From Actinomycetaceae bacterium (GTDB lineage: Bacteria > Actinomycetota > Actinomycetes > Actinomycetales > Actinomycetaceae): a stretch of DNA of 64,000 nucleotides. The stretch spans positions 110,125-174,124 of the forward strand of contig JAUNUK010000003.1 of assembly GCA_030538185.1 (NCBI GenBank). Direction: 5' to 3'. The translations under genes were made by a program, and so were the position numbers. Of this stretch, positions 6,933 through 49,951 are shown piece after piece; positions within the stretch are counted from its first letter, which is position 1, and each line of letters starts with the position of its first letter. The notes under the pieces were generated by a model that was not told the DNA's origin, did no database searches, and saw only the letters and a program-made list of their open reading frames with translations.

Positions 6933-8567
6933 TCAACTGGCGCGTCCCAACACTTCGTCAATCTTCAAGGCGAACTGGATATTGAAAAAGTCTTCTGATG
7001 TATCCACATCGCAGCTGAGAATTTTGTTTATTTTTTCAATCCGTGCGCGTAAGGTATTTTTATGAATACATAGCTGCTGTTCTGTGAGCACTTTAGAACG
7101 ATTGTTATTAATATATGTTTCCAACGTCTTTCTGAGCTCACTTCCATACTGGGTGTCGTGTGCAACCAAAGGCGATAGATACATGTCTTCCATTCTTGTC
7201 AAAAGATTGGCGTCAAGATTCCCTTCGTTGTCTATTAAAAATCTAATAACACCCAAATCTGAATAATAAACAAGGCTGCGACTAGCTTTCTTTCGTCTCG
7301 CGTAATCTGCTGCACGCATTGATTCAGATAGTCCTCTAGCCGTGTCCGACAAGGGCATTGGGCCACTTACCCCCACTGGAACCTCATACACATGCAAGGC
7401 CTTGACATAGAGTTCGCGGATTTTAAGAACGAGAGCTTCAATGTCAGTAAGTGAATCTGGGATAAGGAATAATTGTCCTCGTCTATGTTCGAACATAATA
7501 ATATGTTCCCATCGAAGAATATTTCTTTCGCACATTCCCTGGAAAAGACTCATCCTGCTGTTCATAGTAACCATAGAGTCCGCAAATTCTTCATGAGACA
7601 AGAAAACGAAATAATATCCAGAATGGATTTTTTTCTTGAGCGGTGAAAGGATACGCCGAGCACCCTCTGGGGTTAGTTGTGCCTCAGACAAAAGCACCTC
7701 AAGTAGGAGGCTGTTAAATTTTCGTGTCGCAGATGAGATTTCGTTTTGGCGGGTGAAGTGTAATGCCACAAAGAGGCTCAATGTCTGGACCTGTGTTAGC
7801 TCTAACCCTTGTAACGCTTCCTCTCCCTTTAAGGACGTCACCAGAATCCAGCCGTAGCGCGTCTGGTTAAATTCTACGGGATATGCAAAAACTCTAAGAC
7901 CGGCCTCAATCGTGGCCGAAGTGGTGATCTCTGCTGCCCCTGCGCCCTGCGAAGATTTTTGGGAGGTGGCACTGAGGCTAAGGTGACTACGGTCTGCCCC
8001 TTTCAGCAGCAGCTTCCAGTCGAGGTTGTCCGAGGCTCCAACCAGGTACAGATCGCTGTCTGCGATCGCAACCCCAAGTTTTGAGCCTGTAGCAGTGGTA
8101 GAGCAGATTTTACTTAAGGATTCACCTGCAATCACCGAGTTCATAAGCTCTTGATGGAAGTGTTGATTGTCTTCAATGGCACGATACGGGGCTCCGACCA
8201 TGGTTCTAATGATCGGATTCATCACTTGCCCCCAGTTCATATCTCCAGGGGCCAATAAGATAGGGAATCCAACTTCATCGCAATAGCTAAAGACTTCTTG
8301 AGGTAACCTTTCGGTGAATTTACTTTTCGTTACGATTCCTGCAACATCTTTGACGATCAGGGTGTCGATAAACTCTTTGGACAAGGTGTTTTCAAAGAGG
8401 ACACCCCCGATAAGCAATTCAAAACCGGTCAGCCAATCAGCTATATCTGGGATGTCCATAATGGTTACGGATGTAATTTTGCGCGACAGCCCTGTGGATC
8501 CTGCAAGGACGTGCAAGCTTCCGTCAACTTTCACCGCATCAGCAACTGTAAACACCTTGCCTCCCAA
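6933..8567 (-). CDS. PucR/CdaR-family transcriptional regulator
   Basis: It has a PucR-type N-terminal domain (HVLAGSTGLSRKITSVTIMDIPDIADWL) and a C-terminal HTH (LCIHKNTLRARIEKINKIL). Its composition is clearly AT-richer than the neighbouring genes. Confidence 0.8.
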   Translation of the reverse strand: MGGKVFTVADAVKVDGSLHVLAGSTGLSRKITSVTIMDIPDIADWLTGFELLIGGVLFENTLSKEFIDTLIVKDVAGIVTKSKFTERLPQEVFSYCDEVGFPILLAPGDMNWGQVMNPIIRTMVGAPYRAIEDNQHFHQELMNSVIAGESLSKICSTTATGSKLGVAIADSDLYLVGASDNLDWKLLLKGADRSHLSLSATSQKSSQGAGAAEITTSATIEAGLRVFAYPVEFNQTRYGWILVTSLKGEEALQGLELTQVQTLSLFVALHFTRQNEISSATRKFNSLLLEVLLSEAQLTPEGARRILSPLKKKIHSGYYFVFLSHEEFADSMVTMNSRMSLFQGMCERNILRWEHIIMFEHRRGQLFLIPDSLTDIEALVLKIRELYVKALHVYEVPVGVSGPMPLSDTARGLSESMRAADYARRKKASRSLVYYSDLGVIRFLIDNEGNLDANLLTRMEDMYLSPLVAHDTQYGSELRKTLETYINNNRSKVLTEQQLCIHKNTLRARIEKINKILSCDVDTSEDFFNIQFALKIDEVLGRAS

Positions 8568-8600
8568 GGCAATTCGTCATGCCATCGTCGGTCCAAGTTA

Positions 8601-8627
8601 GGACATAAGTCTTTTTAGACTATGTCC
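8601..8627. promoter_or_regulatory. imperfect palindrome in the pucR / carbamoyltransferase divergent promoter region
   Basis: The sequence is GGACATAAGTCT-TTTT-AGACTATGTCC (one bulged base). It shares the ATAAGTC/GACT half-site with the palindrome at 5350. Confidence 0.4.
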
Positions 8628-8759
8628 GATGGTACAAGAAAACCAGCAACAAACGTACCTTAGCACCATAGTTTTGCAGATAGTTTTCTCCCTACTCTAG
8701 AAACCTAGGCACCTGTTATCACACTGCCCCAGCAACAACGACGTAGCAACGGAGGATCT

Positions 8760-9698
8760 ATGCGTCACAACTTACGAGGTAACGATTACCTGGCATTCAA
8801 GGACATGACCCGAGAAGAAATTGAGTTCGTCGTAGATCTCTCTTTGGATCTCAAGAAGAAATGGGTGGCACGCGAACCCCACGAATACCTCAGAGGTCAG
8901 GTTTGGGCCGCTCTATTTGAAAAATCTTCCACCCGAACCCGTAACGCATTCCAACGCGCTGCAGCTGACCTTGGGATCACCAGCATCTACCTGCGTCCAG
9001 ACGAACTCCAAAGCGGCAGAGGCGAACCCTTGAAGGACACCGCCAGGATGTTCGACCGCTACTACGATGGCCTGTTCATCAGGACTTTTGGCCATGAAAT
9101 CGTGGAAGAGTACGCACAGTGGATGCAACACCCTGTTATCAATGGTCTAACCTCTTTGGCACACCCCACCCAAGGTATAGCCGACTTGATGACCATCAAG
9201 GAGAAAAAGCGAGACTACCCCGGTTTGAAGATTTGCTATGCCGGAAACCTCTACAACGTTTGCTATACGACCATGATCATGTGCGCAAGCTTCGGAATGA
9301 ACCTGACAGTGGCACGTCCTAACGGTATGGAACCCGAACCCATCATCCTGCAAGAAACCATGCGCAGGGCAGCGGTTAGTGGCGCCAAGATCAACTTCAC
9401 AGATAACTTCGATGAAGCACTTTCAGGTGCGGATATCGTCTACGGCATGTCCCATTACTCGATGGGCCAGCCACCGGAAGAAGTAGAGCAACTAAAGCGT
9501 GCCTTCGCCCCGTACCAAGTCAACAGTGAAGCGATGCGCAAGGCGAAGCCCGATGCGATTTTTATGCACTGTTTGCCGGCATACCGCGGAATTGATGTGA
9601 CGGACGAAGTCATGGAATCTGAGCAATCCATGGTCTGGGATCAAGGAGAAAACCGGATGCACTCTATCAAGGGCATCCTCGCCGCTGTTGCTCTTTAG
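8760..9698 (+). CDS. ATCase/OTCase-family carbamoyltransferase, atypical second-substrate motif
   Basis: It has STRTR, HPTQ and HCLP carbamoyl-phosphate motifs. The OTC motif DxxxSMG reads MSHYSMG, whereas the arcB paralog in this window has DIWVSMG. Confidence 0.75.
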   Translation: MRHNLRGNDYLAFKDMTREEIEFVVDLSLDLKKKWVAREPHEYLRGQVWAALFEKSSTRTRNAFQRAAADLGITSIYLRPDELQSGRGEPLKDTARMFDRYYDGLFIRTFGHEIVEEYAQWMQHPVINGLTSLAHPTQGIADLMTIKEKKRDYPGLKICYAGNLYNVCYTTMIMCASFGMNLTVARPNGMEPEPIILQETMRRAAVSGAKINFTDNFDEALSGADIVYGMSHYSMGQPPEEVEQLKRAFAPYQVNSEAMRKAKPDAIFMHCLPAYRGIDVTDEVMESEQSMVWDQGENRMHSIKGILAAVAL

Positions 9699-9773
9699 AA
9701 GATCCTCGCCATATTCACGGCACACCACCCAAAGGCGGGTAGGTGTTCTTTCTACAAAGATCTTGGAGTAATT

Positions 9774-11294
9774 ATGAAAACCAAGGAAGACTCTAGTAAA
9801 AAAGAAAAGAAACAGCTAAAGTCCCCGAATGCTTACGTCATTATTTTCTTCATTATTTTGGCCGTCGCTATTCTTACCTGGATAATCCCAGGTGGCCAAT
9901 ATGATCTGGATGAAAACGGCAGGGCGATTGGTGGAACCTATGAGTTAGCCAAGGCCAATCCACAGGGCCTATGGGACGTCATCATTGCACCCATTATTGG
10001 CATGGTAGGAAATAAAACCATCTCGGCTGCAATCGTGATCTCTCTCAACGTGCTGCTATTCGGCAGCTTCCTGGAGATGATGGAGACCTCGGGAGCCATT
10101 GGCCTTTTCCTAAAACGAGTTGCCATCAAAAACCAAAACAACTACAACCTGTTGATAGTCCTACTTACGACGATCATGGCTGTGTTCGGAACCGTTCAAG
10201 GCGCATACGAAGAGGGCTTCGTGTACCTTCTGATGTTCCTTCCAATCATCCTGGCTCTGGGCCTAGACACGATGGTTGCCGTCATGATTGTCGTCTTTGG
10301 AACGCAAGCAGGATGTCTGGCCTCCGTAGTCAACCCATTTGCAACCGGCATTGCTTCGGGAATCGCAGGGATCAGCCCCGGGGACGGAATGATTTTGCGT
10401 ATCGTCATCCTCATCGTCATGGTTGCCGTTGTATCCACCTACATTTGCCTATACGCCAAGAAGATTAAGGCAGATCCCAGCAAGTCTCCGCAGTTCTATC
10501 GCAGAGACGAAGACCTGAAGGAATTTGCAGTCGCCACCCAAGAAGACCTGTCTATGAGCAGGCGTCAAAAGGGTGTGTTGGGCATGTTTGCAGGGACCTT
10601 CGCAATCTTGATCGTCTCCCTAGTGCCGTGGGCAAGTTTGCATCCCAGTTGGACATTCTTCAAAGACTTCACGACGTGGATTACTGAAATGCCGATTTTG
10701 GGCACTGTCCTCGGGAAGAGTCTTGTTCCCTTCGGAGACTGGTATTTCAACGAGATTAATGCCTTGCTTATTGTGTCGACGATTATCTCTGGCTTCATTA
10801 TGGGATACAAGATCGATAAGACAATCAATATCATCATTAAAGGTGCAGGAGCGCTTATTGGCACAGCCTTTATCATTCCACTTGCGCGAGGAATACAGGT
10901 AATAATGGACGGAGGGAATGTTACACCAACAATCCTCCACTTTGGAGAGACCACCCTTTCCAGCCTGCCCCCCATGGTGTTTGTGATCGTTTGTTTGGTG
11001 TTCTATCTCGTCATGGCTTCGTTCATACCCAGTTCGACTGGCCTGGCAGCAGCCACAATGTCGATTATGGCTCCCTTGGCAGTCTTTGCGGGAGTAAAAG
11101 AAGAAATCATGGTGGACATCTACTTAATGGCTCTAGGGATGGCAAAGATGATCATGCCCACCTCTATTGTCGTCATGACCTGCACTCAAGCGGCGCATGT
11201 CAACTATGGAACATGGGTAAAAACAAACTGGAAATTTGTCTTAGTTTTATTTGCTATCTGCAGCGTATTCCTGCTTATTGGAATACTTCTGTAA
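9774..11294 (+). CDS. YfcC/DcuC-family anaerobic carrier (putative substrate/product antiporter)
   Basis: This is a 506-aa polytopic protein. Segments resemble E. coli YfcC as I remember it (EEGFVYLLMFLPIILALGLD, NPFATGIASGIAG). Confidence 0.75.
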   Translation: MKTKEDSSKKEKKQLKSPNAYVIIFFIILAVAILTWIIPGGQYDLDENGRAIGGTYELAKANPQGLWDVIIAPIIGMVGNKTISAAIVISLNVLLFGSFLEMMETSGAIGLFLKRVAIKNQNNYNLLIVLLTTIMAVFGTVQGAYEEGFVYLLMFLPIILALGLDTMVAVMIVVFGTQAGCLASVVNPFATGIASGIAGISPGDGMILRIVILIVMVAVVSTYICLYAKKIKADPSKSPQFYRRDEDLKEFAVATQEDLSMSRRQKGVLGMFAGTFAILIVSLVPWASLHPSWTFFKDFTTWITEMPILGTVLGKSLVPFGDWYFNEINALLIVSTIISGFIMGYKIDKTINIIIKGAGALIGTAFIIPLARGIQVIMDGGNVTPTILHFGETTLSSLPPMVFVIVCLVFYLVMASFIPSSTGLAAATMSIMAPLAVFAGVKEEIMVDIYLMALGMAKMIMPTSIVVMTCTQAAHVNYGTWVKTNWKFVLVLFAICSVFLLIGILL

Positions 11295-11326
11295 TATCCA
11301 AAATTTATACACACCAGGAGGAAACA

Positions 11327-12178
11327 ATGGAAAAGACCTTTGTAAGCAATGCGACAAATGTACTCAAAAGTGTGCTTGTGTGTTCTCCACAGTACTACGT
11401 ATTCAATGCTATAAACGAAATCACGAAAAGCTGGATGGAGAAAGGAGAAACCGAACAAAATGACCTGATGGTCAAAGAATGGAAGGAGCTAATGGATGCC
11501 TACCGAGCCAACGGAGTGACCGTTCACGAGATGGAACCAGATCCTTCCATGCAAATCCAAACCTTTGCCCGCGACTTTGGGGCGTGCATCAAGGAAGGGG
11601 CCATCATCGGCAAATTCCGCCACCCTGCTCGACAGGTCGAAACCGTAGCCTACGAGGCAAGGTTGAAGGAGCTCGGTGTCCCTATCGTTGCTCGCTGTAA
11701 CGCAGGATGTTTCGAAGGCGGAGACTTTTGGATGATCGATGAGCACACACTCGCCTTTGGCCTCGTAGACCGAACTGACCTGGCAGGGGTAGCTAACCTT
11801 CGAGAACAACTCGAAAAATTCGGGTACACCGTAATCGGGGTTCCAGTACCCCCAGCGAACCTTCACCTGGACATGGTTTTCAATATTGTGGCAGAGAAGG
11901 TCTGTCTAGCTGCCCTTGAACAACTTCCCTACAATTTTATACAAATGCTCAAGCGCAGGAACTTTGAGATCATTCCCGTGGAAAGCGAATTGGTCTTCAA
12001 ACATGGCTGCAATGTTCAAGCTCTGGGCGAAGGCAAAGTCCTTGGCATCACCAACAATGCGACTGTCAATCAGCGGATGAAAGCTCTGGGGATCGATGTT
12101 GTGGAAGTCGATTTGATGCAAATCCTTAAGGCAGGTGGCGGACCCCACTGCATGTCATTCCCTGTTGAGAGGCCCTGA
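11327..12178 (+). CDS. small guanidino-group-modifying hydrolase (amidinotransferase/DDAH/arginine-deiminase superfamily)
   Basis: ATG 11327 follows an AGGAGG Shine-Dalgarno. It has an ADI-like LHLDMVFN motif and a C-terminal catalytic-Cys motif GGGPHCMSFPV. At 284 aa it is much shorter than canonical ArcA. Confidence 0.7.
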   Translation: MEKTFVSNATNVLKSVLVCSPQYYVFNAINEITKSWMEKGETEQNDLMVKEWKELMDAYRANGVTVHEMEPDPSMQIQTFARDFGACIKEGAIIGKFRHPARQVETVAYEARLKELGVPIVARCNAGCFEGGDFWMIDEHTLAFGLVDRTDLAGVANLREQLEKFGYTVIGVPVPPANLHLDMVFNIVAEKVCLAALEQLPYNFIQMLKRRNFEIIPVESELVFKHGCNVQALGEGKVLGITNNATVNQRMKALGIDVVEVDLMQILKAGGGPHCMSFPVERP

Positions 12179-12179
12179 T

Positions 12180-13166
12180 ATGAAAGTCCTGATCAGTGAC
12201 TACAAGGACTCCATGATGCCGGAGCACAACTACGAGATTGAGGTGTTAAAGGCTGGTCTTCCCAACGTTGACGTCGAGGTATATGAATACACTGATGCAA
12301 ACCGTTTGAGCTTCATCGAAAAAATCGGCTCAGTTGATGCTTTACTAACGGCCTTTATTCCCATAGACAAGGCCATTTTGGACAACGCTCCAGTGCTGAA
12401 GGTCATTTCCTTGAACGCCACAGGCTACGACAATGTGGATCTCACGGAGGCCACCAAACACAGCATCGGGGTTTGTCCTGTGGGGGAATACTGCACTCAG
12501 GACGTAGCCGAACACACCATCGCGCTCATGCTAAGCCTGAACAAGAATCTCAAGTATTACGCCTACTCAATAGAACGGTCTTTCAAATGGGCTTTCGATG
12601 CGGCACCTGCCCCTGTCCGCATAGGTAATCAAACCTTGGGGATCTTTGGTCTCGGACGCATAGGGAGAGCCGTTGCAAGCAAGGCTCAGTGTCTGGGCAT
12701 GAAGGTCATAGCGCATGACCCGTTTGTTAACGCTGCAGAAGCGCAAGCATTGGGAGTCGAGTTAACCGATCTCAAAGATCTGCTCAGGCGTTCGGATGTT
12801 ATTTCAAACCACATGAATCTGGGAGAGGAGACTACACATTATTTTACCGATGCAGAATTCAAAGCAATGGCGCGTCGTCCCATATTTCTCAACCTGGGAC
12901 GAGGCTTGAGTGTCGATGAGGCCGCTTTGGTTGAGGCCCTTGATACAGGACAGGTTCGCGCAGCTGGTTTGGATGTACTGACGAACGAACGACCAGTCTT
13001 AGAAGGGCACCCCCTGACAAATAGACCAAATGTCATTATCACGCCACATTCAGCCTTTTACTCTGAGGAGTCATTCATAGATATTCAAAGAATTTCTTGT
13101 CAAAACATCGTCAACTATTTGACAAACAAGAAAGACAAAGTATTCAAACTAGTGAACGATGTGTGA
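12180..13166 (+). CDS. D-isomer-specific 2-hydroxyacid dehydrogenase
   Basis: It has the NAD motif GIFGLGRIGRAV...AHD, the catalytic region NLGRG...E...ITPHSAF, and its start lies 1 nt after the upstream stop. Confidence 0.8.
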   Translation: MKVLISDYKDSMMPEHNYEIEVLKAGLPNVDVEVYEYTDANRLSFIEKIGSVDALLTAFIPIDKAILDNAPVLKVISLNATGYDNVDLTEATKHSIGVCPVGEYCTQDVAEHTIALMLSLNKNLKYYAYSIERSFKWAFDAAPAPVRIGNQTLGIFGLGRIGRAVASKAQCLGMKVIAHDPFVNAAEAQALGVELTDLKDLLRRSDVISNHMNLGEETTHYFTDAEFKAMARRPIFLNLGRGLSVDEAALVEALDTGQVRAAGLDVLTNERPVLEGHPLTNRPNVIITPHSAFYSEESFIDIQRISCQNIVNYLTNKKDKVFKLVNDV

Positions 13167-13178
13167 AATGGTTTTTGG

Positions 13179-14564
13179 GTGGCACGCATTATCGTGCCAC
13201 CCAAAAACAAGAGGGAGTCACACGTGAATGAGACCACAGTCTCAAGGTCAAGGCTACTGAAGTTCTCAGCGGTGGCCTTGGTTGGCTTGGGCGCATTTAC
13301 TGTGCCTTTTCCGTACCAAGGCTCTGTCACCATTGCAGTTGGAGCCATTACTGATGTATTAACTTACATTTCACAAGGTGCCATTGATTTTGTTTTGATA
13401 TTCCTTACCTCCATCTCGACTATAGGCTCAGTCCTAGCCACGATCCTCAAACAGTTAAATAAGCTGAATCCTGAAAGCCAATTTCAAAAACTCTTTTACA
13501 CGACCCCGATATACCTGGTAACCAAGCTTATTGCCTTCGCCCTTTTAGTCGCCTATTACTCAAATTTCACGACCGACGTCTTGCCACTTTCTGAACCAAC
13601 AACACAGATGATCTCTTTGGCTAAGACTCTTATTGCCTTGGCAGTTTCCCTCAGTTTCTTGCTTCCTTTCCTCACCGAAGGAGGCTTGATGGAGTTCATT
13701 GGAGAACTCACCAAACCCTTTGTTCAACCCCTGTTCAAGGTGCCCTCGCACGCATCACTGGATCTCATAGCTTCCTGGTTGGGCGCATCAAGTGCCGCAG
13801 TGATCTTGTCGGCTGAAAAATATAGAGAGGGCTACTATTCAAAGCGAGAAGTAGCCAATGTCATGTGCAACTTCTCTCTGGTTTCCATTCCCTTTTGCTT
13901 GGTGGTTGCGAAGGCAGCAAGGGTCGATCAGTATTTCTCAATCATGTACCTGCTTTTGTGCGTATTAGGTGTAATCCTCGCAATAATTGCTCCACGGATT
14001 TACCCTCTGAACCGGATTGAAGACACTTTCATAGGAACCAGGACCAAACTTATTCCTCCAAGTTCCGACAAGCATATCCTTGCACGTGCTCTGGACTTGG
14101 GGTGCCAGCAAGTCCAACACTTCACCTGGCGCCTCCTGCTTCGCTCTGGCACACAAGTGTGTTTAGGAATTTGCCTAAACCTTGTGCCCATAGTCATCGC
14201 CTGGGGTGTTGCAGGACTTCTCGTAGTTCAACACACGCCCCTGTTGAACTGGATAGCCTTCCCCATGGGGCTGTTGCTCGAAGTAATGGGCGTTCAAAGC
14301 GCTGCATCTGTTGCCCCTGCAACCTTGGCAGGTTTCGTGGATATGTTTATACCCGCACTGCTCATAGGGGATGTCGAACCGACCGCGACACGATTCATTA
14401 TCGCCACCCTGTCCTTGATCCAAATCATCTACATCACAGAAGTCGGTGTCATCATTATCAAAACTGACGTTGGCCTCAATTTTTGGAAACTCTTCATCAT
14501 CTTCATTGAACGCACCCTAATCTCCTTGCCGCTCATCGTCCTAGTAGCGAAACTCATCTTCTAA
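13179..14564 (+). CDS. polytopic membrane protein, nucleoside-recognition (Gate)/YjiH-like putative transporter
   Basis: This is a 461-aa ORF with many hydrophobic segments and is the last gene of the AT-richer operon. The family assignment is from memory of YjiH-type proteins and the start codon is uncertain. Confidence 0.5.
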   Translation: MARIIVPPKNKRESHVNETTVSRSRLLKFSAVALVGLGAFTVPFPYQGSVTIAVGAITDVLTYISQGAIDFVLIFLTSISTIGSVLATILKQLNKLNPESQFQKLFYTTPIYLVTKLIAFALLVAYYSNFTTDVLPLSEPTTQMISLAKTLIALAVSLSFLLPFLTEGGLMEFIGELTKPFVQPLFKVPSHASLDLIASWLGASSAAVILSAEKYREGYYSKREVANVMCNFSLVSIPFCLVVAKAARVDQYFSIMYLLLCVLGVILAIIAPRIYPLNRIEDTFIGTRTKLIPPSSDKHILARALDLGCQQVQHFTWRLLLRSGTQVCLGICLNLVPIVIAWGVAGLLVVQHTPLLNWIAFPMGLLLEVMGVQSAASVAPATLAGFVDMFIPALLIGDVEPTATRFIIATLSLIQIIYITEVGVIIIKTDVGLNFWKLFIIFIERTLISLPLIVLVAKLIF

Positions 14565-14623
14565 TGCTGTAAGGACCCCTCACGCATCTGTTGAATACCT
14601 TCGTTATCCCATACAATCGACAC

Positions 14624-15949
14624 ATGCCTCAATCCCTGCAGATCTCTGCTGCCACGGTCGATCCTGCACTCCTAGACCTGCCTTGGGACATTGCCTTAGA
14701 ACAGTGGCCAGCCCACCATTTAGCCACTTTACCCAGGGGTATTTCTCGTCACGTAGTGCGTTTCGTGAACTTGTCTGGACGCATTATCGCGGTGAAGGAA
14801 ATCAGCGGGATCGTCGCGCGAGGGGAATATGACCTCTTGTGGGAGCTAGACAGATTGGGTGCGCCCTCCGTGCAAGCTACAGCGGTCATTACCGGACGCA
14901 CAGATGCCAAAGGTGAAGAGCTCAACTCCGCCCTCGTCACTGAGCATTTGTCGTATTCCTTGCCTTATCGCGCCCTCTTTAGCCAAAATATGCGCCCTGA
15001 AACGGCAACCCGCCTCATCGACTCTTTGGCGGTCCTCTTGGTGCGGCTGCACTTACTGGGCTTCTACTGGGGGGATGTCTCCCTGTCCAACACGCTCTTC
15101 CGCCGAGACGCCGGGGCGTTTGCCGCCTACCTGGTGGATGCGGAAACTGGGGAGCTACACCCCGAGGGACTAAGCAATGGCCAGCGCAACTATGACGTGG
15201 ACTTAGCGCGCACCAATATCATTGGCGAACTGATGGACTTGCAGGCCGGGGCCCTACTGGAACCCAATGTGGACACAATCGATGTGGGCAACCGGATTGT
15301 GGAACGCTATGAAACCCTGTGGGAGGAACTGACCGCGCGCGAATCCTTCACGGTCAAAGAACGCTGGCGGGTCCAAGAGCGCATCAGGCGCCTCAACGAT
15401 CTGGGGTTCGATGTGGGCGAACTGTCCATCACTCAAGATCCGACCACCGTTGGCCAAGCCAAACTATCCATTGAACCGAAGGTCGTGGATGCGGGGCACT
15501 ATCAGCGGCAAATCATGCGTCTGACAGGTCTGGATGTGCAAGAAAACCAAGGTCGGCGCATGCTCAATAACCTTCAGACGTATATTACGTTCAGCGGGAA
15601 AGAAAAGCTGCCCATTGAACTGGCCGCACACCAGTGGCTAGCCGAGGTTTTTGAACCCACAGTTCACGCCGTCCCCCCCGAACTATCCTCAAAGCTGGAA
15701 CCCGCCGAAATCTTCCATGAGGTCTTGGAACACCGCTGGTACCTCTCCGAGGAACGCAAAAAAGAAGTCCCCTTGCCCGAAGCTGTGAAATCTTACGTTA
15801 AGAAAGTGCTCATCAACCGGCCAGATGAGGCGGCCATGCTGGACCTGCCAAAAGAGACCGCAGATGGTTTTGATGGCATTAGTATCGAGGACACCACCAG
15901 CTACAGCCAAGATGATGGCTTCAAAGAAAGCGAGGAGCCAGTTGTTTAG
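14624..15949 (+). CDS. DUF4032 / lipopolysaccharide-kinase-like protein conserved in actinobacteria
   Basis: It has a kinase-like core (GFYWGDVSLSNTLFRRDAGAFAAYLVDAETGE). I prefer ATG 14624 over TTG 14591. Confidence 0.6.
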   Translation: MPQSLQISAATVDPALLDLPWDIALEQWPAHHLATLPRGISRHVVRFVNLSGRIIAVKEISGIVARGEYDLLWELDRLGAPSVQATAVITGRTDAKGEELNSALVTEHLSYSLPYRALFSQNMRPETATRLIDSLAVLLVRLHLLGFYWGDVSLSNTLFRRDAGAFAAYLVDAETGELHPEGLSNGQRNYDVDLARTNIIGELMDLQAGALLEPNVDTIDVGNRIVERYETLWEELTARESFTVKERWRVQERIRRLNDLGFDVGELSITQDPTTVGQAKLSIEPKVVDAGHYQRQIMRLTGLDVQENQGRRMLNNLQTYITFSGKEKLPIELAAHQWLAEVFEPTVHAVPPELSSKLEPAEIFHEVLEHRWYLSEERKKEVPLPEAVKSYVKKVLINRPDEAAMLDLPKETADGFDGISIEDTTSYSQDDGFKESEEPVV

Positions 15950-45054: not shown

Positions 45055-46647
45055 CTATCCGTATATCAGGACCTGGGCGACCAGCAGTGCGCCTCCAAAT
45101 CCCAAAACGAACAACACCATTGGCCAAATGAAACGCAACCAGTGGGAGTACTTCATGTCAAGCATCTGAAGGGTTGCCATAACCAGACCAGTTGGCGCCA
45201 AGAACAACATGGCGTATTGGCCCCATTGATATGCGCACACAACAATAAACCTTGGAATGCCAACCGAATCAGCAAGAGGCGCCAAAATCGGCATAGATAG
45301 CACAGCCAATCCCGAGGACGAAGGCACTACGAAGCCCAGTACGAAGAAAATCAACAACATAATGATGATGAAGAGTGGCCCCGACATTCCCTCAACCAGC
45401 TGAGAAGACTGGAACAATAGGGTGTCCGATATGAGGCCCTCGTTCATGACCAGGTTGATCCCACGGGCCAACCCGATGATCAAAGAGACCGCCACTAGGG
45501 ACGCCGAGCCATTCGAAAAGGCATCGACAAGCTGTTTTTCTGTCAGGCGCTGCGGCCCTGTAGCCGCCAGCAACATGATTGCAATGGCGACTGTCAGGAA
45601 CATTGAAGCCATCGCCGGGAACCACCAGCCCTGCGACATCACCCCCCACACCATGATCGGGAATGCGGCGACGAAAAGAACCAGGATAACCTTGCGCCGC
45701 CATGAGAAAGGAATAGATGCTGCGTTGTCACCTTCCATGGCCCACTGCTTGTTGAAAGCTTCATGGTCTGAATAGGTGTAGGAAAACTCAGGGTTGGCCT
45801 TTATTTTCCTGGCGTACCACCACAAGTAGACGATGACTGCTATGGCTCCTACGACACAGCCTCCCACACGCCACCACAGGCCCTCTGTGAAGACAATACC
45901 CGCTGCGTTTGAGGCAATAACGACCGAAAATGGATTGATCGTCGAGAAAGTGGTTCCCATTGAGCCGGCTAGGAAGATTGCCCCGACGCTTATTATTGAG
46001 TCATACCCCAGTGCTATAAAAACAGGCACCAGGATGGGATAGAAGGCCACGGCCTCTTCCTCCAGCCCGCAGCTTGTTCCCCCAAGTATCATCAATACCG
46101 ACACCACGAAGACCAAAGCAAACTCATGCCCTTTGGTCTTTTGCGTCAAGACAAAGAGGCCAGCCTCAAAAGCGCCCGTGGCCCGCACAACACCAATCAA
46201 GCCCCCCAAGACCAAGATGAACACAATGATGTCTGCTGCCTCAACAGTGCCTTTGACCATGGCGTGTGTGATTTCTGAAGCTCCAGCAGGGTTTTGTTCC
46301 AGACGCTCATAAGTACCAGGGATCGAAATTGGCTTAGTGATCGCACCCTTTTGGAACTGTTCAATGCCAATCTGGACCCCCATCTTGTCCAATTCGGCCT
46401 GTGTCGCCTCAACGGTTTCCACCTCCCCGCGAGGGTTGGTGACAGACAGCTGACTTGTTTCCTTGTCATAGGACAGCTTTGAGTAGCTACCTGCGGGAAC
46501 AGACCAGGTTGCTCCTACCGCCAGAATGGTTAGGATGAAAAGAATGGTAAAGGCCGAAGGTACCCCTATTCGAATCCTGTTCCTGCGACGTTCTGCTTGC
46601 CTCTCGGTCTCTTGCTTTGTTGGTGCTTGCGTAGACGACATTGTCAT
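45055..46647 (-). CDS. YfcC/DcuC-family carrier (ArcD-like putative arginine/citrulline-ornithine antiporter)
   Basis: GLEEEAVAFYPILVPVFIALGYDSIISV matches my memory of the E. coli YfcC segment GMGEEAVAFAIIIAPLMVRLGYDSITTV. It is 530 aa long and adjacent to arcBC. Confidence 0.75.
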   Translation of the reverse strand: MTMSSTQAPTKQETERQAERRRNRIRIGVPSAFTILFILTILAVGATWSVPAGSYSKLSYDKETSQLSVTNPRGEVETVEATQAELDKMGVQIGIEQFQKGAITKPISIPGTYERLEQNPAGASEITHAMVKGTVEAADIIVFILVLGGLIGVVRATGAFEAGLFVLTQKTKGHEFALVFVVSVLMILGGTSCGLEEEAVAFYPILVPVFIALGYDSIISVGAIFLAGSMGTTFSTINPFSVVIASNAAGIVFTEGLWWRVGGCVVGAIAVIVYLWWYARKIKANPEFSYTYSDHEAFNKQWAMEGDNAASIPFSWRRKVILVLFVAAFPIMVWGVMSQGWWFPAMASMFLTVAIAIMLLAATGPQRLTEKQLVDAFSNGSASLVAVSLIIGLARGINLVMNEGLISDTLLFQSSQLVEGMSGPLFIIIMLLIFFVLGFVVPSSSGLAVLSMPILAPLADSVGIPRFIVVCAYQWGQYAMLFLAPTGLVMATLQMLDMKYSHWLRFIWPMVLFVLGFGGALLVAQVLIYG

Positions 46648-46828
46648 TCAGCCCCCTGATAGAAATTGATTGCTTACAGACAAAAACTACGTAGGGATTG
46701 TGAGGGCGGAAAGGACTAACAACGGTCAATTCTGGGTCTATTATGGTTTATCCTGAACCAGGTGTCTCTAATACCTAACTAACCGCAGACTCAATGACGG
46801 GATCTACCTCAACGATGAGAGAAACGAA

Positions 46829-47794
46829 ATGTCATCGGTATTATTTTATTATACATTAACAATTATGCTGGTCTGCGGAATTGCAGGAGCCAGCAGCATG
46901 GGCGTCTATCTGATAACACACAGAAGAAGAACGCTTTATGTATTCTTTGCATTTTTGTGTTACTTCTTTGATGTGGCCCTTGTATTTGAAGATGACTTCC
47001 TTTATCACCAAGCCCTACATCTGGCACCTAAAGAAGCATTTATTGGTCACCCTATCGCCTCAATCATATTGGGATATGGGATATTACAAGGTTATTGGTT
47101 GTTCATCTGCGAATACTTGTCAGTTACGTCAAAAAAGATGCGCTACATCCCGGGGCTACTGTTCGTCATTTCGTCTGCTGCCACACTTCTGACGCTTCAG
47201 GCAGGAGGTCTCCAGACGTTTTTGTTCTACACGAATCGTGAGGTCTTTCTAGCGTGGATACTGTTATATATCGCCTGGGCCTACCTACAAGATCCCAGCA
47301 GCACTACCGCTGTTCATCTGTGGCGATACCGATGGTTCTACATCTCTCAGTGGGTCTTCGGCATCGCAATTGTTGTAGAGAACGTCATCTTCCAACTACT
47401 GCTTGAACCGAATTTATTCCTCGACGGCACATTATCTTTCTTCCCAGAACGAAGCTTTGCTGAAAATGCCACTATGGTTTCCGCTGCGATTTTGACAATG
47501 CTCAAGGCACACACAGGACTTTCCTTAAGATCCGAACATATCCCCGATGCCCATACACAGAACACTGAGCACCTCCTTCGCGACACAATTCTTGTTTTTG
47601 CTCCCTCAAATAACTTATCCAAACGTGAAACAGAACTTCTGGAACTGGTTTTAAAGGGATTGGACAACCGGCAGATCGCTTCAAAGCTATACCTCTCCAT
47701 TTCAACGGTAAAGGTTCATGTTCACAATATTTTGAAGAAAACCGGTACAAATAACAGGCAAGAACTAGCATCACTATTCTGGTCCGGAGCCTAG
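46829..47794 (+). CDS. membrane-embedded LuxR-family regulator (AguR-like architecture)
   Basis: It has about 6-7 hydrophobic segments followed by a C-terminal LuxR HTH (LSKRETELLELVLKGLDNRQIASKLYLSISTVKVHVHNIL). It is AT-rich. Confidence 0.8.
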   Translation: MSSVLFYYTLTIMLVCGIAGASSMGVYLITHRRRTLYVFFAFLCYFFDVALVFEDDFLYHQALHLAPKEAFIGHPIASIILGYGILQGYWLFICEYLSVTSKKMRYIPGLLFVISSAATLLTLQAGGLQTFLFYTNREVFLAWILLYIAWAYLQDPSSTTAVHLWRYRWFYISQWVFGIAIVVENVIFQLLLEPNLFLDGTLSFFPERSFAENATMVSAAILTMLKAHTGLSLRSEHIPDAHTQNTEHLLRDTILVFAPSNNLSKRETELLELVLKGLDNRQIASKLYLSISTVKVHVHNILKKTGTNNRQELASLFWSGA

Positions 47795-47982
47795 CCTCGT
47801 AATTATGCAGCTAAAAATGGGTGTAGATAGGTATAGGTGCCTCTAAACACCAAACCATCCCCCCTCTAGGCCCACAATGACACCTCTTGACTATTCGCGT
47901 TTGAATGCGCGCGTCCTAACCTAGAAATGTCAACGTCCACAGATGGAAAACACCTCTTTTTCTCTGGACATCCCACACAGCT

Positions 47983-49014
47983 ATGCAGCATTCAAAGGAG
48001 AATTTAATCGTGGCTTTCAATTTGAAAAACCGGCACCTGCTCTCTCTGGTTCACCACACCCCATCCGAAATCCTCTACCTGTTAGATCTCGCGAGAGACC
48101 TGAAGAGAGCAAAATACGACGGCACCGAACAACAGCGCTTACGTGGAAAAACCATTGCGCTAATCTTTGAGAAAACCTCAACCCGTACCCGTTGCGCCTT
48201 TGAGGTAGCCGCCTACGATCAAGGCGCAAATGTGACATACCTGGAACCTTCGGGTTCACAGATCGGTCACAAGGAAACCATGAAGGACACCGCCAGGGTT
48301 CTGGGCAGAATGTATGATGCCATCGAATACAGGGGTTTCAGCCAAAAACTGGTTCAAGAACTCGCCGATTTCTCTGGTGTTCCCGTTTTCAACGGCCTTA
48401 CAGACCAATACCACCCCACACAAATGTTGGCCGACGTCATGACGATGATTGAACACAGCGACAAACCCGTCCATCAGATTTCCTTTGCCTTTGTGGGTGA
48501 CGGACGCAATAACGTCTCTAATTCTTTGCTACTGATTGCAGCGAAACTGGGGATGGATGTGCGCATCGTTTCTCCCCGTGAGTTACAACCAACCAAAGAG
48601 CTTCAAACCATGTGTCAGGGGTTTGCCCAGGCGTCCTCGGCAAAAATATTGGTGACGGATGATATTGCTGCAGGCATTGACCACGTCGACTTCCTCTATA
48701 CCGATATCTGGGTTTCCATGGGAGAACCCCTTGAATCGTGGAAGGAGCGCATCGATATCCTGCTTCCCTACCAGGTCAACTCAGCCATGATTGAGGCCAC
48801 CCATAACCCCAAGGTGAAGTTCATGCACTGCTTGCCTTCTTTCCACAATTCGGATACCAAGATCGGGCAGGATGTCGCAAAGCACTACCCCCATCTAGCC
48901 AATGGCATCGAGGTAACAGAAGACGTGTTCGAATCCCCTATGAACATCTCTTTCGATGAGGCTGAAAACCGCATGCACACCATCAAGGCTGTCATGGTCG
49001 CATCCCTGGCCTAG
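47983..49014 (+). CDS. arcB: ornithine carbamoyltransferase (ArgI/ArcB type)
   Basis: It has [17 protein letters not shown] and [10 protein letters not shown] motifs, with close resemblance to my memory of E. coli ArgI. An alternative GTG start at 48010 follows AAAGGAG. Confidence 0.9.
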
Positions 49015-49039
49015 TCAGTCGGGTGGAGAGGAGAAAAAG

Positions 49040-49951
49040 ATGAGGATTGTCGTAGCTCTGGGTGGGAATGCGCTACTTAGGCGCGGTGAAGCCATGACCG
49101 CTGAAAACCAGCAAGCAAATGTGCGAATCGCCGCTAAACGCATAGCCGAGATTGTCAAAGAACACCAAGTGGTTATCGTCCACGGAAATGGTCCACAAGT
49201 TGGTTTATTGGCTTTACAGGCGGCTGCATACACGGATGTCGCACCCTACCCCTTAGACGTTTTGGTAGCCGAAACCCAAGCGCAGATTGGATACATGATT
49301 GAACAAGAATTGCGCAACGAAGTAGGGTCACACACCGCATTGGCGACCATGATGACCGTCATAGAGGTCGATCCTAAGGATCCGGCTTTCAATGCGCCAA
49401 CGAAGCCCATTGGACCAGTTTACGAAGAAGATCAAGCCAAGGCCTTGGCCGAAGAAAAAGGCTGGAGCATTGCGGCCGATGGCGCCAAGTGGCGTCGGGT
49501 TGTACCCTCACCTGCACCCATTGAGATTCTTGAAATCGAGTCCATCCGTTCATTGGTGGATACGAATACGGTTGTTATCTGCGCTGGAGGGGGTGGAATT
49601 CCTTGCGTCTATGATTCCGACAACGACACCTACACGGGTGTTGAAGCGGTTATTGACAAGGATTTGGCCTCGGCACTTTTGGCTCGAAAGTTGAATGCCG
49701 ACATGTTGATTATTGCTACTGATGTGGATGGGGTGCGCATGGACTGGGGGACCCCCCAGGAACACACCCTTGATCACGCAACGGTGTCTCAGCTGGAGAA
49801 ACTGGATTTCGCCAAGGGGTCAATGGGGCCAAAGGTTGAGGCGGCATGCTCCTTTGCCCGCAACAGTAACAAGACGGCAGTAATAGGCTGTCTGGACGAT
49901 ATCTCAAGGATTGTCCGGTCTGGGGCAGGGACCAGGATCACCTCCCAATAG
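49040..49951 (+). CDS. arcC: carbamate kinase
   Basis: The N-terminus is [17 protein letters not shown]...[12 protein letters not shown] 49040 follows GGAGAGGAG. Confidence 0.9.

Follow-up and report, generated by a model that had tools for sequence, protein, structure and literature searches.

The window analyzed here is a stretch of 64,000 nucleotides from contig JAUNUK010000003.1 of an Actinomycetaceae bacterium. The gene at positions 8760–9698 of its forward strand encodes a carbamoyltransferase with the fold of ornithine carbamoyltransferase (OTC), here called cTC, which probably transfers the carbamoyl group to or from an acceptor other than ornithine, in a pathway with a mini arginine-deiminase-like enzyme (mini-ADI) and a carbamate kinase. 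This reading was drawn from sequence comparison. The open reading frame starts with ATG and encodes a product of 312 amino acids, in which both domains of the family were recognized (Pfam OTCace_N, PF02729, E 5.7e-42; OTCace, PF00185, E 6.5e-48). Moreover, the carbamoyl-phosphate motifs of cTC were intact, with FEKSSTRTR, HPTQ, and MHCLPAYRG corresponding to the features SxRT, HPxQ, and HxLP of the transcarbamylase superfamily. A preliminary description of this DNA had already stated that these motifs were conserved, and STRTR, HPTQ, and HCLP were all found.

The changes that set cTC apart lie in the acceptor pocket. Three independent alignments of the protein were prepared, namely, a phmmer alignment to the OTCs of P. 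furiosus (1pvv/1a1s) and T. maritima (1vlv), a BLASTP alignment to the product of the window's own arcB gene (47983–49014; 36% identity), and a MAFFT alignment of 254 family and outgroup proteins. The register was the same and gap-free in all three between the invariant anchors A-D-x-x-Y and S-M-G, so that A-D-V-I-Y-T-D-V-W-A-S-M-G of OTC was paired with A-D-I-V-Y-G-M-S-H-Y-S-M-G of cTC. In each of them, the Asp of the OTC motif DxxxSMG was replaced by Met230 (codon 9447–9449), and the remaining loop exchanges were Thr229 to Gly, Val231 to Ser, and Trp to His232, the last position being His or Gln in the Met subtypes. The replacement of Asp by Met and of Trp by His, as given in the preliminary description, was thereby reproduced in all three alignments. 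A shift in register that would restore the Asp had been named there as a possible objection. As the stretch from Asp225 to Glu240 holds no acidic residue in between, such a shift cannot supply an Asp.

A second change was found in the same pocket, where G-D-G-N-N-V of OTC is replaced by G-N-L-Y-N-V, with Asn163 in place of Asp and Tyr165 in place of the first Asn. The second Asn was retained as Asn166, and since it is separated from position 230 by 64 residues, as N167 is from D231 in E. coli OTC and N199 from D263 in human OTC, it was regarded as the equivalent of these ornithine-binding residues. Accordingly, the ornithine contacts retained in cTC were Lys55 (the Lys of FxKxSxRT), Asn166, and S-M-G, which suggests that the acceptor may still be recognized by a carboxylate at its distal end. 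The positions specific to the clade of cTC relative to canonical OTC clustered at 163–165 and 229–231, with few others, and no new acidic residue that could take over ammonium binding was present among the clade-specific positions of the alignment.

The lost residue has an established role in OTC. The second-substrate site of the E. coli enzyme consists of N167, D231, S235, M236, and L274, and DxxxSMG is the motif that sets OTC apart from other members of the transcarbamylase family (PMC4581275). D231 is listed there among the ornithine contacts together with S235, M236, and N167, in line with the contact to ornithine that the preliminary description had given for this Asp. For human OTC, all D263 variants tested in a mutational scan had null or low activity (bioRxiv 10.1101/2022.10.26.513893). 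Judged by these data, Met at the Asp position fits poorly with the binding of ornithine. In the diaminobutyrate and diaminopropionate transcarbamylases (DBTCase and DPTCase), where the Asp has been replaced, the acceptor is a new one and the Asp of HDLP compensates (PMC4581275). The putrescine carbamoyltransferase, PTCase, lacks the SMG motif but has the Asp (D227), which is used for the distal amino group of putrescine (PMC4581275). Thus, the earlier statement that this enzyme replaces the SMG loop altogether was roughly right.

The relatives of cTC indicate that the exchange of Asp for Met did not arise as a chance event in a single protein. In the joint alignment, the Asp position was occupied by Met in 89 of 89 relatives of the Met subtype, while Asp was present in all canonical OTC sequences (94/94). 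A maximum likelihood tree of 77 rows (IQ-TREE quick, LG+C20) contained one clade of 36 rows with support of 97 in the SH-like approximate likelihood ratio test (SH-aLRT), and 35 of the 36 had no Asp. The Asp-less proteins formed one clade in this tree. Within it, a clade of 20 rows (support 100) comprised the subtypes M, V, A, and Na, and a clade of 17 rows (support 95) comprised the Met forms, among which the Na forms were nested. The outgroup and the deeper Asp-less members were obtained from a search of representative sequences, in which no representative exceeded 49% identity.

The subtypes were distinguished by the loop around the Asp position. Subtype M1, to which cTC of the window belongs, has G-M-S-(H/Q)-Y-S-M-G-Q, and subtype M2 has G-M-T-(H/Q)-Y-A-M-G-H. 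The Asn-containing subtypes have G-N-A-Q-Y-S-M-G-Q (Na) and G-N-T-W-H-S-M-G-E (Nb). Subtypes V and A carry Val and Ala at the Asp position, respectively, and the deepest branches carry Leu or Ile. The sole clade member with Asp was a protein of 52% identity (P0118, locus L006:9001-12426) with the loop Y-A-D-A-W-H-A-M-G. Its gene had no mini-ADI neighbor; a class III aminotransferase gene and then a gene for a 350-aa protein of the amino-acid-kinase fold followed downstream, and MttB-family, proline-racemase-like, and isochorismatase genes were located nearby.

The family with 57–85% identity to cTC was well populated in a large protein collection. The named sources were Lactobacillus jensenii (72% identity), Streptococcus didelphis, S. 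himalayensis, S. halichoeri, Enterococcus mundtii, and E. phoeniculicola, as well as Vagococcus, Isobaculum, Atopobacter, Ignavigranum, Enterocloster aldenensis, Klebsiella indica, Oscillospiraceae, a spirochaete, and an actinomycete metagenome-assembled genome. Every source-named family member was designated ornithine carbamoyltransferase. This uniform label arises because the NCBIfam equivalog model for OTC, TIGR00658, scores the clade above its cut-off, and the naming is probably a systematic mis-annotation. Within the literature searched, no paper that characterizes the Asp-less clade was found.

The second enzyme of the proposed pathway, mini-ADI, is a guanidino-modifying enzyme of 283 amino acids encoded downstream of cTC. 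The mechanically called open reading frame (10991–12178) begins with TTG and shares about 300 nt with the carrier gene; the gene itself starts with the ATG at 11327, preceded by an AGGAGG ribosome-binding site. The protein scored far below the cut-offs of all DDAH, arginine deiminase (ADI), and ArgZ models, its nearest solved relatives were ArgZ, 2-nitroimidazole nitrohydrolase, ADI, and DDAH (E approximately 1e-8), and an atlas look-up returned only the generic names amidinotransferase, DDAH, and ADI family. Mini-ADI was aligned to the ADI of M. arginini, with the residue roles taken from PMC3474736. Phe158, the guanidinium-binding Asp161 and Asp271, and the catalytic Glu213, His269, and Cys398 (ADI numbering) were kept in mini-ADI of all subtypes, as were the equivalents of both carboxylate-binding residues, Arg180 and Arg232. 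Mini-ADI has no counterpart of the five-helix insert of ADI (about 85 residues). As the catalytic, guanidinium-binding, and carboxylate-binding residues of ADI are kept, mini-ADI appears to be active as a hydrolase on a guanidino carboxylic acid.

The association of the two enzymes was evaluated in relatives, using a neighborhood set of eleven contigs and metagenome loci that was tabulated by tblastn. The metagenome scan yielded 8 loci, several of which were too short to reveal neighbors, and among the matches listed from a scan of the genome collection with the family alignment, all were of 54% identity or less, with no close-family neighborhoods. Wherever a locus had sufficient flanking sequence and a cTC of 57% identity or more, a mini-ADI gene was present, and most of these loci also contained a PucR-family regulator and a carrier. 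By tblastn, mini-ADI was not detected in the loci in which the cTC identity was 54% or lower (L006, L012-L015). The PucR gene flanked cTC in L001-L005, L094-L098, and L100-L103. A carbamate kinase gene lay inside the operon in seven loci (L003, L005, L008, L092, L095, L098, and L103), which indicates the catabolic, ATP-yielding direction.

The remaining neighbors varied with the subtype. A 2-hydroxyacid dehydrogenase gene followed the mini-ADI gene in all M1 and Na loci and was absent from the M2, Nb, V, and A loci. A DcuC-type carrier, usually with a Gate-domain protein, accompanied the dehydrogenase in subtypes M1 and Na only, and homologues of the Gate-domain protein were found in L005, L008, L095, L098, L101, and L103. 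Subtypes M2, Nb, and V had APC or SSF permeases instead, and one Nb locus had an aminotransferase. In Lactobacillus jensenii (L001/L002:6199-7179), genes for an ornithine-cyclodeaminase/mu-crystallin-family protein and a TauE-like exporter were located directly upstream of the PucR gene, an arrangement not seen in the other fetched loci. This arrangement could be relevant if the product of the pathway is a cyclic imine such as pyrroline-2-carboxylate.

Taken by homology and gene order, the parts of a deiminase-type ATP pathway appear to be present, namely, mini-ADI, a transcarbamylase, and a carrier in the island of the window, with the kinase outside the island here and inside the operon in the seven loci of relatives. 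In such a pathway, the carrier would import a guanidino acid, and mini-ADI would hydrolyze its guanidino group to a ureido group and ammonia. The ureido compound would then be phosphorolyzed by cTC to an amine and carbamoyl phosphate, from which carbamate kinase, encoded in the operon of many relatives and elsewhere in the source genome, would produce ATP. Like OTC/ArcB, cTC is probably a trimer that phosphorolyzes the ureido compound and feeds carbamate kinase. With the carboxylate-binding residues kept in both enzymes and the ammonium-binding Asp lost, the substrate would most likely be an omega-guanidino carboxylic acid that resembles arginine but carries no cationic alpha-amino group. When the strict tie of subtype M1 to the D-2-hydroxyacid dehydrogenase is added to the kept carboxylate contacts and the lost Asp, a 2-oxo or D-2-hydroxy analogue is preferred. 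Tentatively, 2-oxoarginine or argininic acid might therefore be the analogue of arginine/citrulline that is converted to 5-amino-2-hydroxy- or 5-amino-2-oxo-pentanoate, although we consider this assignment doubtful. It is speculation that, in a D-2-hydroxy acid, a hydrogen would face the former Asp position and suit Met.

Several observations weigh against this interpretation and have to be set beside it. The score of cTC with TIGR00658 was 332.2 bits, above the cut-off of 280.85, so the protein passes as OTC by that model, a score that says nothing on specificity. As S-M-G, Asn166, and Lys55 are kept, residual or real citrulline activity is conceivable. In ADI, moreover, backbone carbonyls are the main contacts of the alpha-amino group (PMC3474736); therefore, the sequence of mini-ADI cannot tell whether its substrate has an alpha-amino group. 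The TIGR00658 score, the retained S-M-G, Asn166, Lys55, and HCLP, the retained arginine-binding residues of ADI in mini-ADI, and a YfcC/ArcD-like carrier would suit an enzyme that is still an OTC. In that case, mini-ADI would form citrulline out of arginine, or out of a methylated arginine in the manner of DDAH, and cTC would phosphorolyze the citrulline with a re-wired alpha-amino contact; the island would be a redundant, horizontally acquired ADI pathway.

We regard a retained OTC function as quite improbable. The Asp was invariant in the canonical OTCs and is intolerant of substitution in the human enzyme, Met is unable to bind ammonium, and no acidic clade-specific residue compensates for it. 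The conserved 2-hydroxyacid dehydrogenase would also be left without a role. Furthermore, one ADI and two canonical pairs of OTC and carbamate kinase are already encoded elsewhere in the genome. The canonical arcA-arcB-arcC operon of this 2.42 Mb genome is located on contig C1 (207843-210928), and a second arcB-arcC pair lies in the window (45055-49951) with a divergent YfcC/DcuC-type carrier gene and a LuxR-type regulator gene but no arcA. Thus, the island does not stand in for absent arc genes. The pair without arcA could serve as a citrulline-utilization module or could supply carbamate kinase for the island. Genome-wide AA_kinase matches gave two carbamate kinases, both outside the island, and the one encoded by this second pair would be available to the carbamoyl phosphate of the island. 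The preliminary description had proposed that the acceptor is probably something other than ornithine or putrescine, and this proposal gains support from the fixed change in the clade, the non-arc operon, the human D263 data, and the genome's own ADI, OTC, and carbamate kinase. The putrescine reading is also weakened by the score of cTC with TIGR04384 (262 bits, with the cut-off at 500) and by Lys in place of the PTC-type Gln of FxQxSxRT.

Purine-related neighbors were observed in L003 (AMP nucleosidase), L005 (adenine deaminase), L004, and L007, and together with PucR they hint at another substrate class, which likewise counts against a guanidino acid. In L004 (1544-18176), a 57%-identical member with Ala at the Asp position is accompanied by a 333-aa guanidino-modifying enzyme, PucR, and a TRAP transporter, and by UbiD decarboxylase, M20 amidohydrolase, PuuE-like polysaccharide deacetylase, and xanthine-dehydrogenase-like genes. 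This cluster resembles purine-ring catabolism, and its cTC may act on a ureido-imidazole or allantoate-like intermediate. L007 (1359-5597) holds an Nb-subtype cluster composed of cTC, an APC permease, mini-ADI, and an SSF carrier, and AllG, AllF, and Ldh_2 (AllD-like) genes, that is, the non-homologous oxamate transcarbamylase system with a ureidoglycolate dehydrogenase, are located approximately 3 kb away.

On these grounds, cTC might be an oxamate carbamoyltransferase of the OTC family or another ureido-acid transferase in the fermentation of purines or allantoin, in which case the dehydrogenase would convert (S)-ureidoglycolate to oxalurate and cTC would convert oxalurate to oxamate and carbamoyl phosphate. 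Besides the PucR-family regulator, the purine-related genes of L003, L004, L005, and L007, and the carbamate kinase in the operons of relatives, this is favored by the oxamate transcarbamylase activity reported without a gene in streptococci and enterococci (PMC11326118), and by the spatial likeness of (S)-ureidoglycolate to a D-2-hydroxy acid, according to our own stereochemical reasoning. However, the invariant guanidino-modifying partner, with its intact guanidinium-binding Asp pair and carboxylate clamp, has no place in that scheme, and half of the subtypes have no dehydrogenase. The contacts to the distal carboxylate (SMG loop and Asn166) suggest an acceptor longer than oxamate. In addition, the oxamate transcarbamylase of E. 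coli is AllFGH, which is unrelated to the OTC fold (PMC11326118), and as AllF and AllG adjoin the cTC cluster in L007, cTC would be redundant there as an oxamate enzyme. An oxamate-type function was accordingly judged very improbable.

The pathway with a guanidino acid and a non-ornithine acceptor leaves the identity of the amine to be weighed. Two further points tell against the 2-oxo or D-2-hydroxy analogue in particular: the role ascribed to the 2-hydroxyacid dehydrogenase is guessed, and the literature searched contained no mention of bacteria using 2-oxoarginine or argininic acid as a nutrient. The same pathway logic would apply to other amines, such as a plain omega-amino acid (5-aminovalerate, gamma-aminobutyric acid, or beta-alanine, each derived from its guanidino acid), an N-alpha-blocked ornithine (e.g., N-acetylornithine from N-acetylarginine), or sarcosine and glycine from creatine and guanidinoacetate. 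Any of these would suit the loss of the ammonium-binding Asp, and the hydrophobic Met would pack on a CH2 or acyl group. The APC-family amino-acid permeases of subtypes M2, Nb, and V, which have no dehydrogenase, point in the same direction, as do the class III aminotransferases that adjoin distant members in L004 and L006 and the catabolic transcarbamylases of beta-alanine type anticipated in a review (PMC4581275). Such an amine nevertheless seems unlikely, as the strict link of M1 to the D-2-hydroxyacid dehydrogenase would be unexplained, and very short acceptors such as glycine and sarcosine would fall short of the retained SMG-loop contacts.

A wider proposal combines these elements. The Asp-less clade and mini-ADI would form a third family of deiminase-type substrate-level phosphorylation, after those for arginine and agmatine, acting on host-derived guanidino acids without a free alpha-amino group. 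The Met subtype with the dehydrogenase would act on 2-oxoarginine or argininic acid, and the sister subtypes with Asn, Val, and Ala would be adapted to different guanidino compounds. The family would have spread horizontally in animal-associated Firmicutes, Actinobacteria, Spirochaetes, and Enterobacteria, with all members mis-annotated as OTC. Taken jointly, these statements were considered evenly balanced between true and false.

The features of the window discussed here are listed in Table 1. The carrier of the island scored 191 bits with the NCBIfam YfcC model, below its cut-off, and shared 24% identity with the YfcC-type carrier (45055-46647) beside the second arcBC pair. For the 2-hydroxyacid dehydrogenase, no NCBIfam model reached its cut-off, and the closest solved structures were PGDH, CtBP, and glyoxylate reductase. 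The island itself has no carbamate kinase gene. A promoter and terminator scan of 8400-14800 gave no signal above the shuffled expectation.

Table 1. Positions in the window of the cTC gene, its altered pocket segments, the other genes of the island, and the carbamate kinase gene outside it.
Feature	Position	Strand	Evidence
PucR-family regulator, divergent	6933..8567	-	Pfam PucR + HTH_30
cTC, OTC-fold carbamoyltransferase of the Asp-less clade, 312 aa	8760..9698	+	Pfam, motifs, alignments, tree
Codons G162-V167 (G-N-L-Y-N-V), in place of OTC G-D-G-N-N-V	9243..9260	+	Alignments
Codons V227-Q237 (V-Y-G-M-S-H-Y-S-M-G-Q), altered SMG loop	9438..9470	+	Alignments, group conservation
DcuC/YfcC-family membrane carrier, putative substrate/product antiporter	9774..11294	+	Pfam DcuC
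Mini-ADI, guanidino-modifying enzyme, 283 aa	11327..12178	+	Homology, conserved ADI residues
D-isomer-specific 2-hydroxyacid dehydrogenase	12180..13166	+	Pfam 2-Hacid_dh + 2-Hacid_dh_C
Gate-domain membrane protein, second putative carrier	13179..14564	+	Pfam Gate
Carbamate kinase of the second arcB-arcC pair	48956..49951	+	Pfam AA_kinase

The origin of the island was also evaluated. The GC content was 48.7% in the island (8001–12000) versus 52–57% in the flanks. A search of 40 genomes from the same family or order gave no close homologue of cTC, and the OTCs present there were all ordinary ones of 40–41% identity. The closest homologues (83–85% identity) were mostly unnamed proteins from metagenomes and assemblies, with few named sources (Oscillospiraceae, Clostridiales, and Klebsiella). 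The low GC content, the missing homologue in relatives, and the closest proteins elsewhere together indicate horizontal acquisition, and they are consistent with a recent transfer from Firmicutes or gut bacteria.

The known ATP sources linked to carbamoyl phosphate are arginine, agmatine, allantoin/oxalurate, and, recently, uric-acid intermediates through YgeW. If the proposed pathway is true, it would add a further energy source for gut, urogenital, and animal-associated bacteria, with Lactobacillus jensenii, several species of Streptococcus, Enterococcus, and Vagococcus, Enterocloster, and Klebsiella indica among the carriers, and it would point to a host or dietary guanidino compound consumed by these bacteria. 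The naming of the clade as OTC can distort reconstructions of arginine metabolism. Moreover, one pocket position occupied by Asp, Asn, Met, Val, or Ala offers a ready system for studying the evolution of transcarbamylase specificity.

Among known transcarbamylases, cTC is most readily compared with the short OTCs (EC 2.1.3.3), namely, the P. furiosus enzyme (1pvv/1a1s) and the catabolic ArcB. It shares with them the unknotted fold, as shown by a full-length alignment (E 3e-75) with one single-residue gap after residue 240, and also STRTR, HPTQ, HCLP, the Lys of FxKxSxRT, the second Asn of NN, and S-M-G. However, cTC is without the DxxxSMG Asp, has G-N-L-Y-N, and falls in the separate clade supported by the SH-aLRT value of 97; the operon partners of its gene encode the 283-aa mini-ADI and a 2-hydroxyacid dehydrogenase and not the product of arcA. 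PTCase of the agmatine deiminase pathway (E. faecalis 4a8h/3txx) is alike in belonging to the catabolic OTC branch, in its changed 230s loop, and in its association with a guanidino deiminase, an antiporter, and carbamate kinase. It is characterized by Asp D227, Gln in FxQxSxRT, a (Y/W)(G/W)(V/L/I)x loop in place of SMG, and a C-terminal extension of approximately 20 aa. An assignment of cTC as PTCase was rejected owing to the Lys of FEKSSTRTR, the presence of SMG, the length of 312 aa without the extension, and the low TIGR04384 score.

DBTCase and DPTCase also belong to the OTC branch, with the DxxxSMG Asp replaced by Thr or Ser and a new acceptor. These enzymes are anabolic and encoded in antibiotic gene clusters, their HDLP Asp binds the alpha-amino group, and their loop is (T/S)RWQ(S/T)(M/T)G, whereas the context of cTC is catabolic; cTC was rejected as a member of either group, as it has HCLP and G-M-S-H-Y-S-M-G instead. 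UGTCase was ruled out by motifs and model scores. The knotted AOTCase, SOTCase, and YgeW, which are marked by a proline-rich loop and an extended 120s loop, were rejected as well, since only a single one-residue gap separates cTC from the unknotted 315-aa P. furiosus OTC, and the model scores were 128 bits against 288 for AOTCase and 59–64 bits against 453–500 for YgeW. YgeW, for which cleavage of 2,3-diureidopropanoate for ATP formation has been described in a 2025 preprint, resembles cTC in being catabolic, in its association with carbamate kinase, in its occurrence in gut bacteria, and in its non-classical ureido acid, but it is knotted, has 396 aa, and belongs to another branch. An AllFGH-type oxamate carbamoyltransferase was rejected because AllFGH and the OTC fold are unrelated (PMC11326118).

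Finally, the arginine deiminase pathway (ArcA, ArcB, ArcC, and ArcD) has the same overall composition, with a guanidino-modifying deiminase, a transcarbamylase, a carbamate kinase, and an exchanger. The island differs from it in that its deiminase is without the helical insert, its transferase is without the ornithine Asp, its regulator is of the PucR type, and an extra dehydrogenase and a Gate carrier are present. Conservation, phylogeny, gene context, and the published mutational data together support cTC as a candidate transcarbamylase of the OTC branch with a new acceptor, operating in what would be a new deiminase-type pathway.

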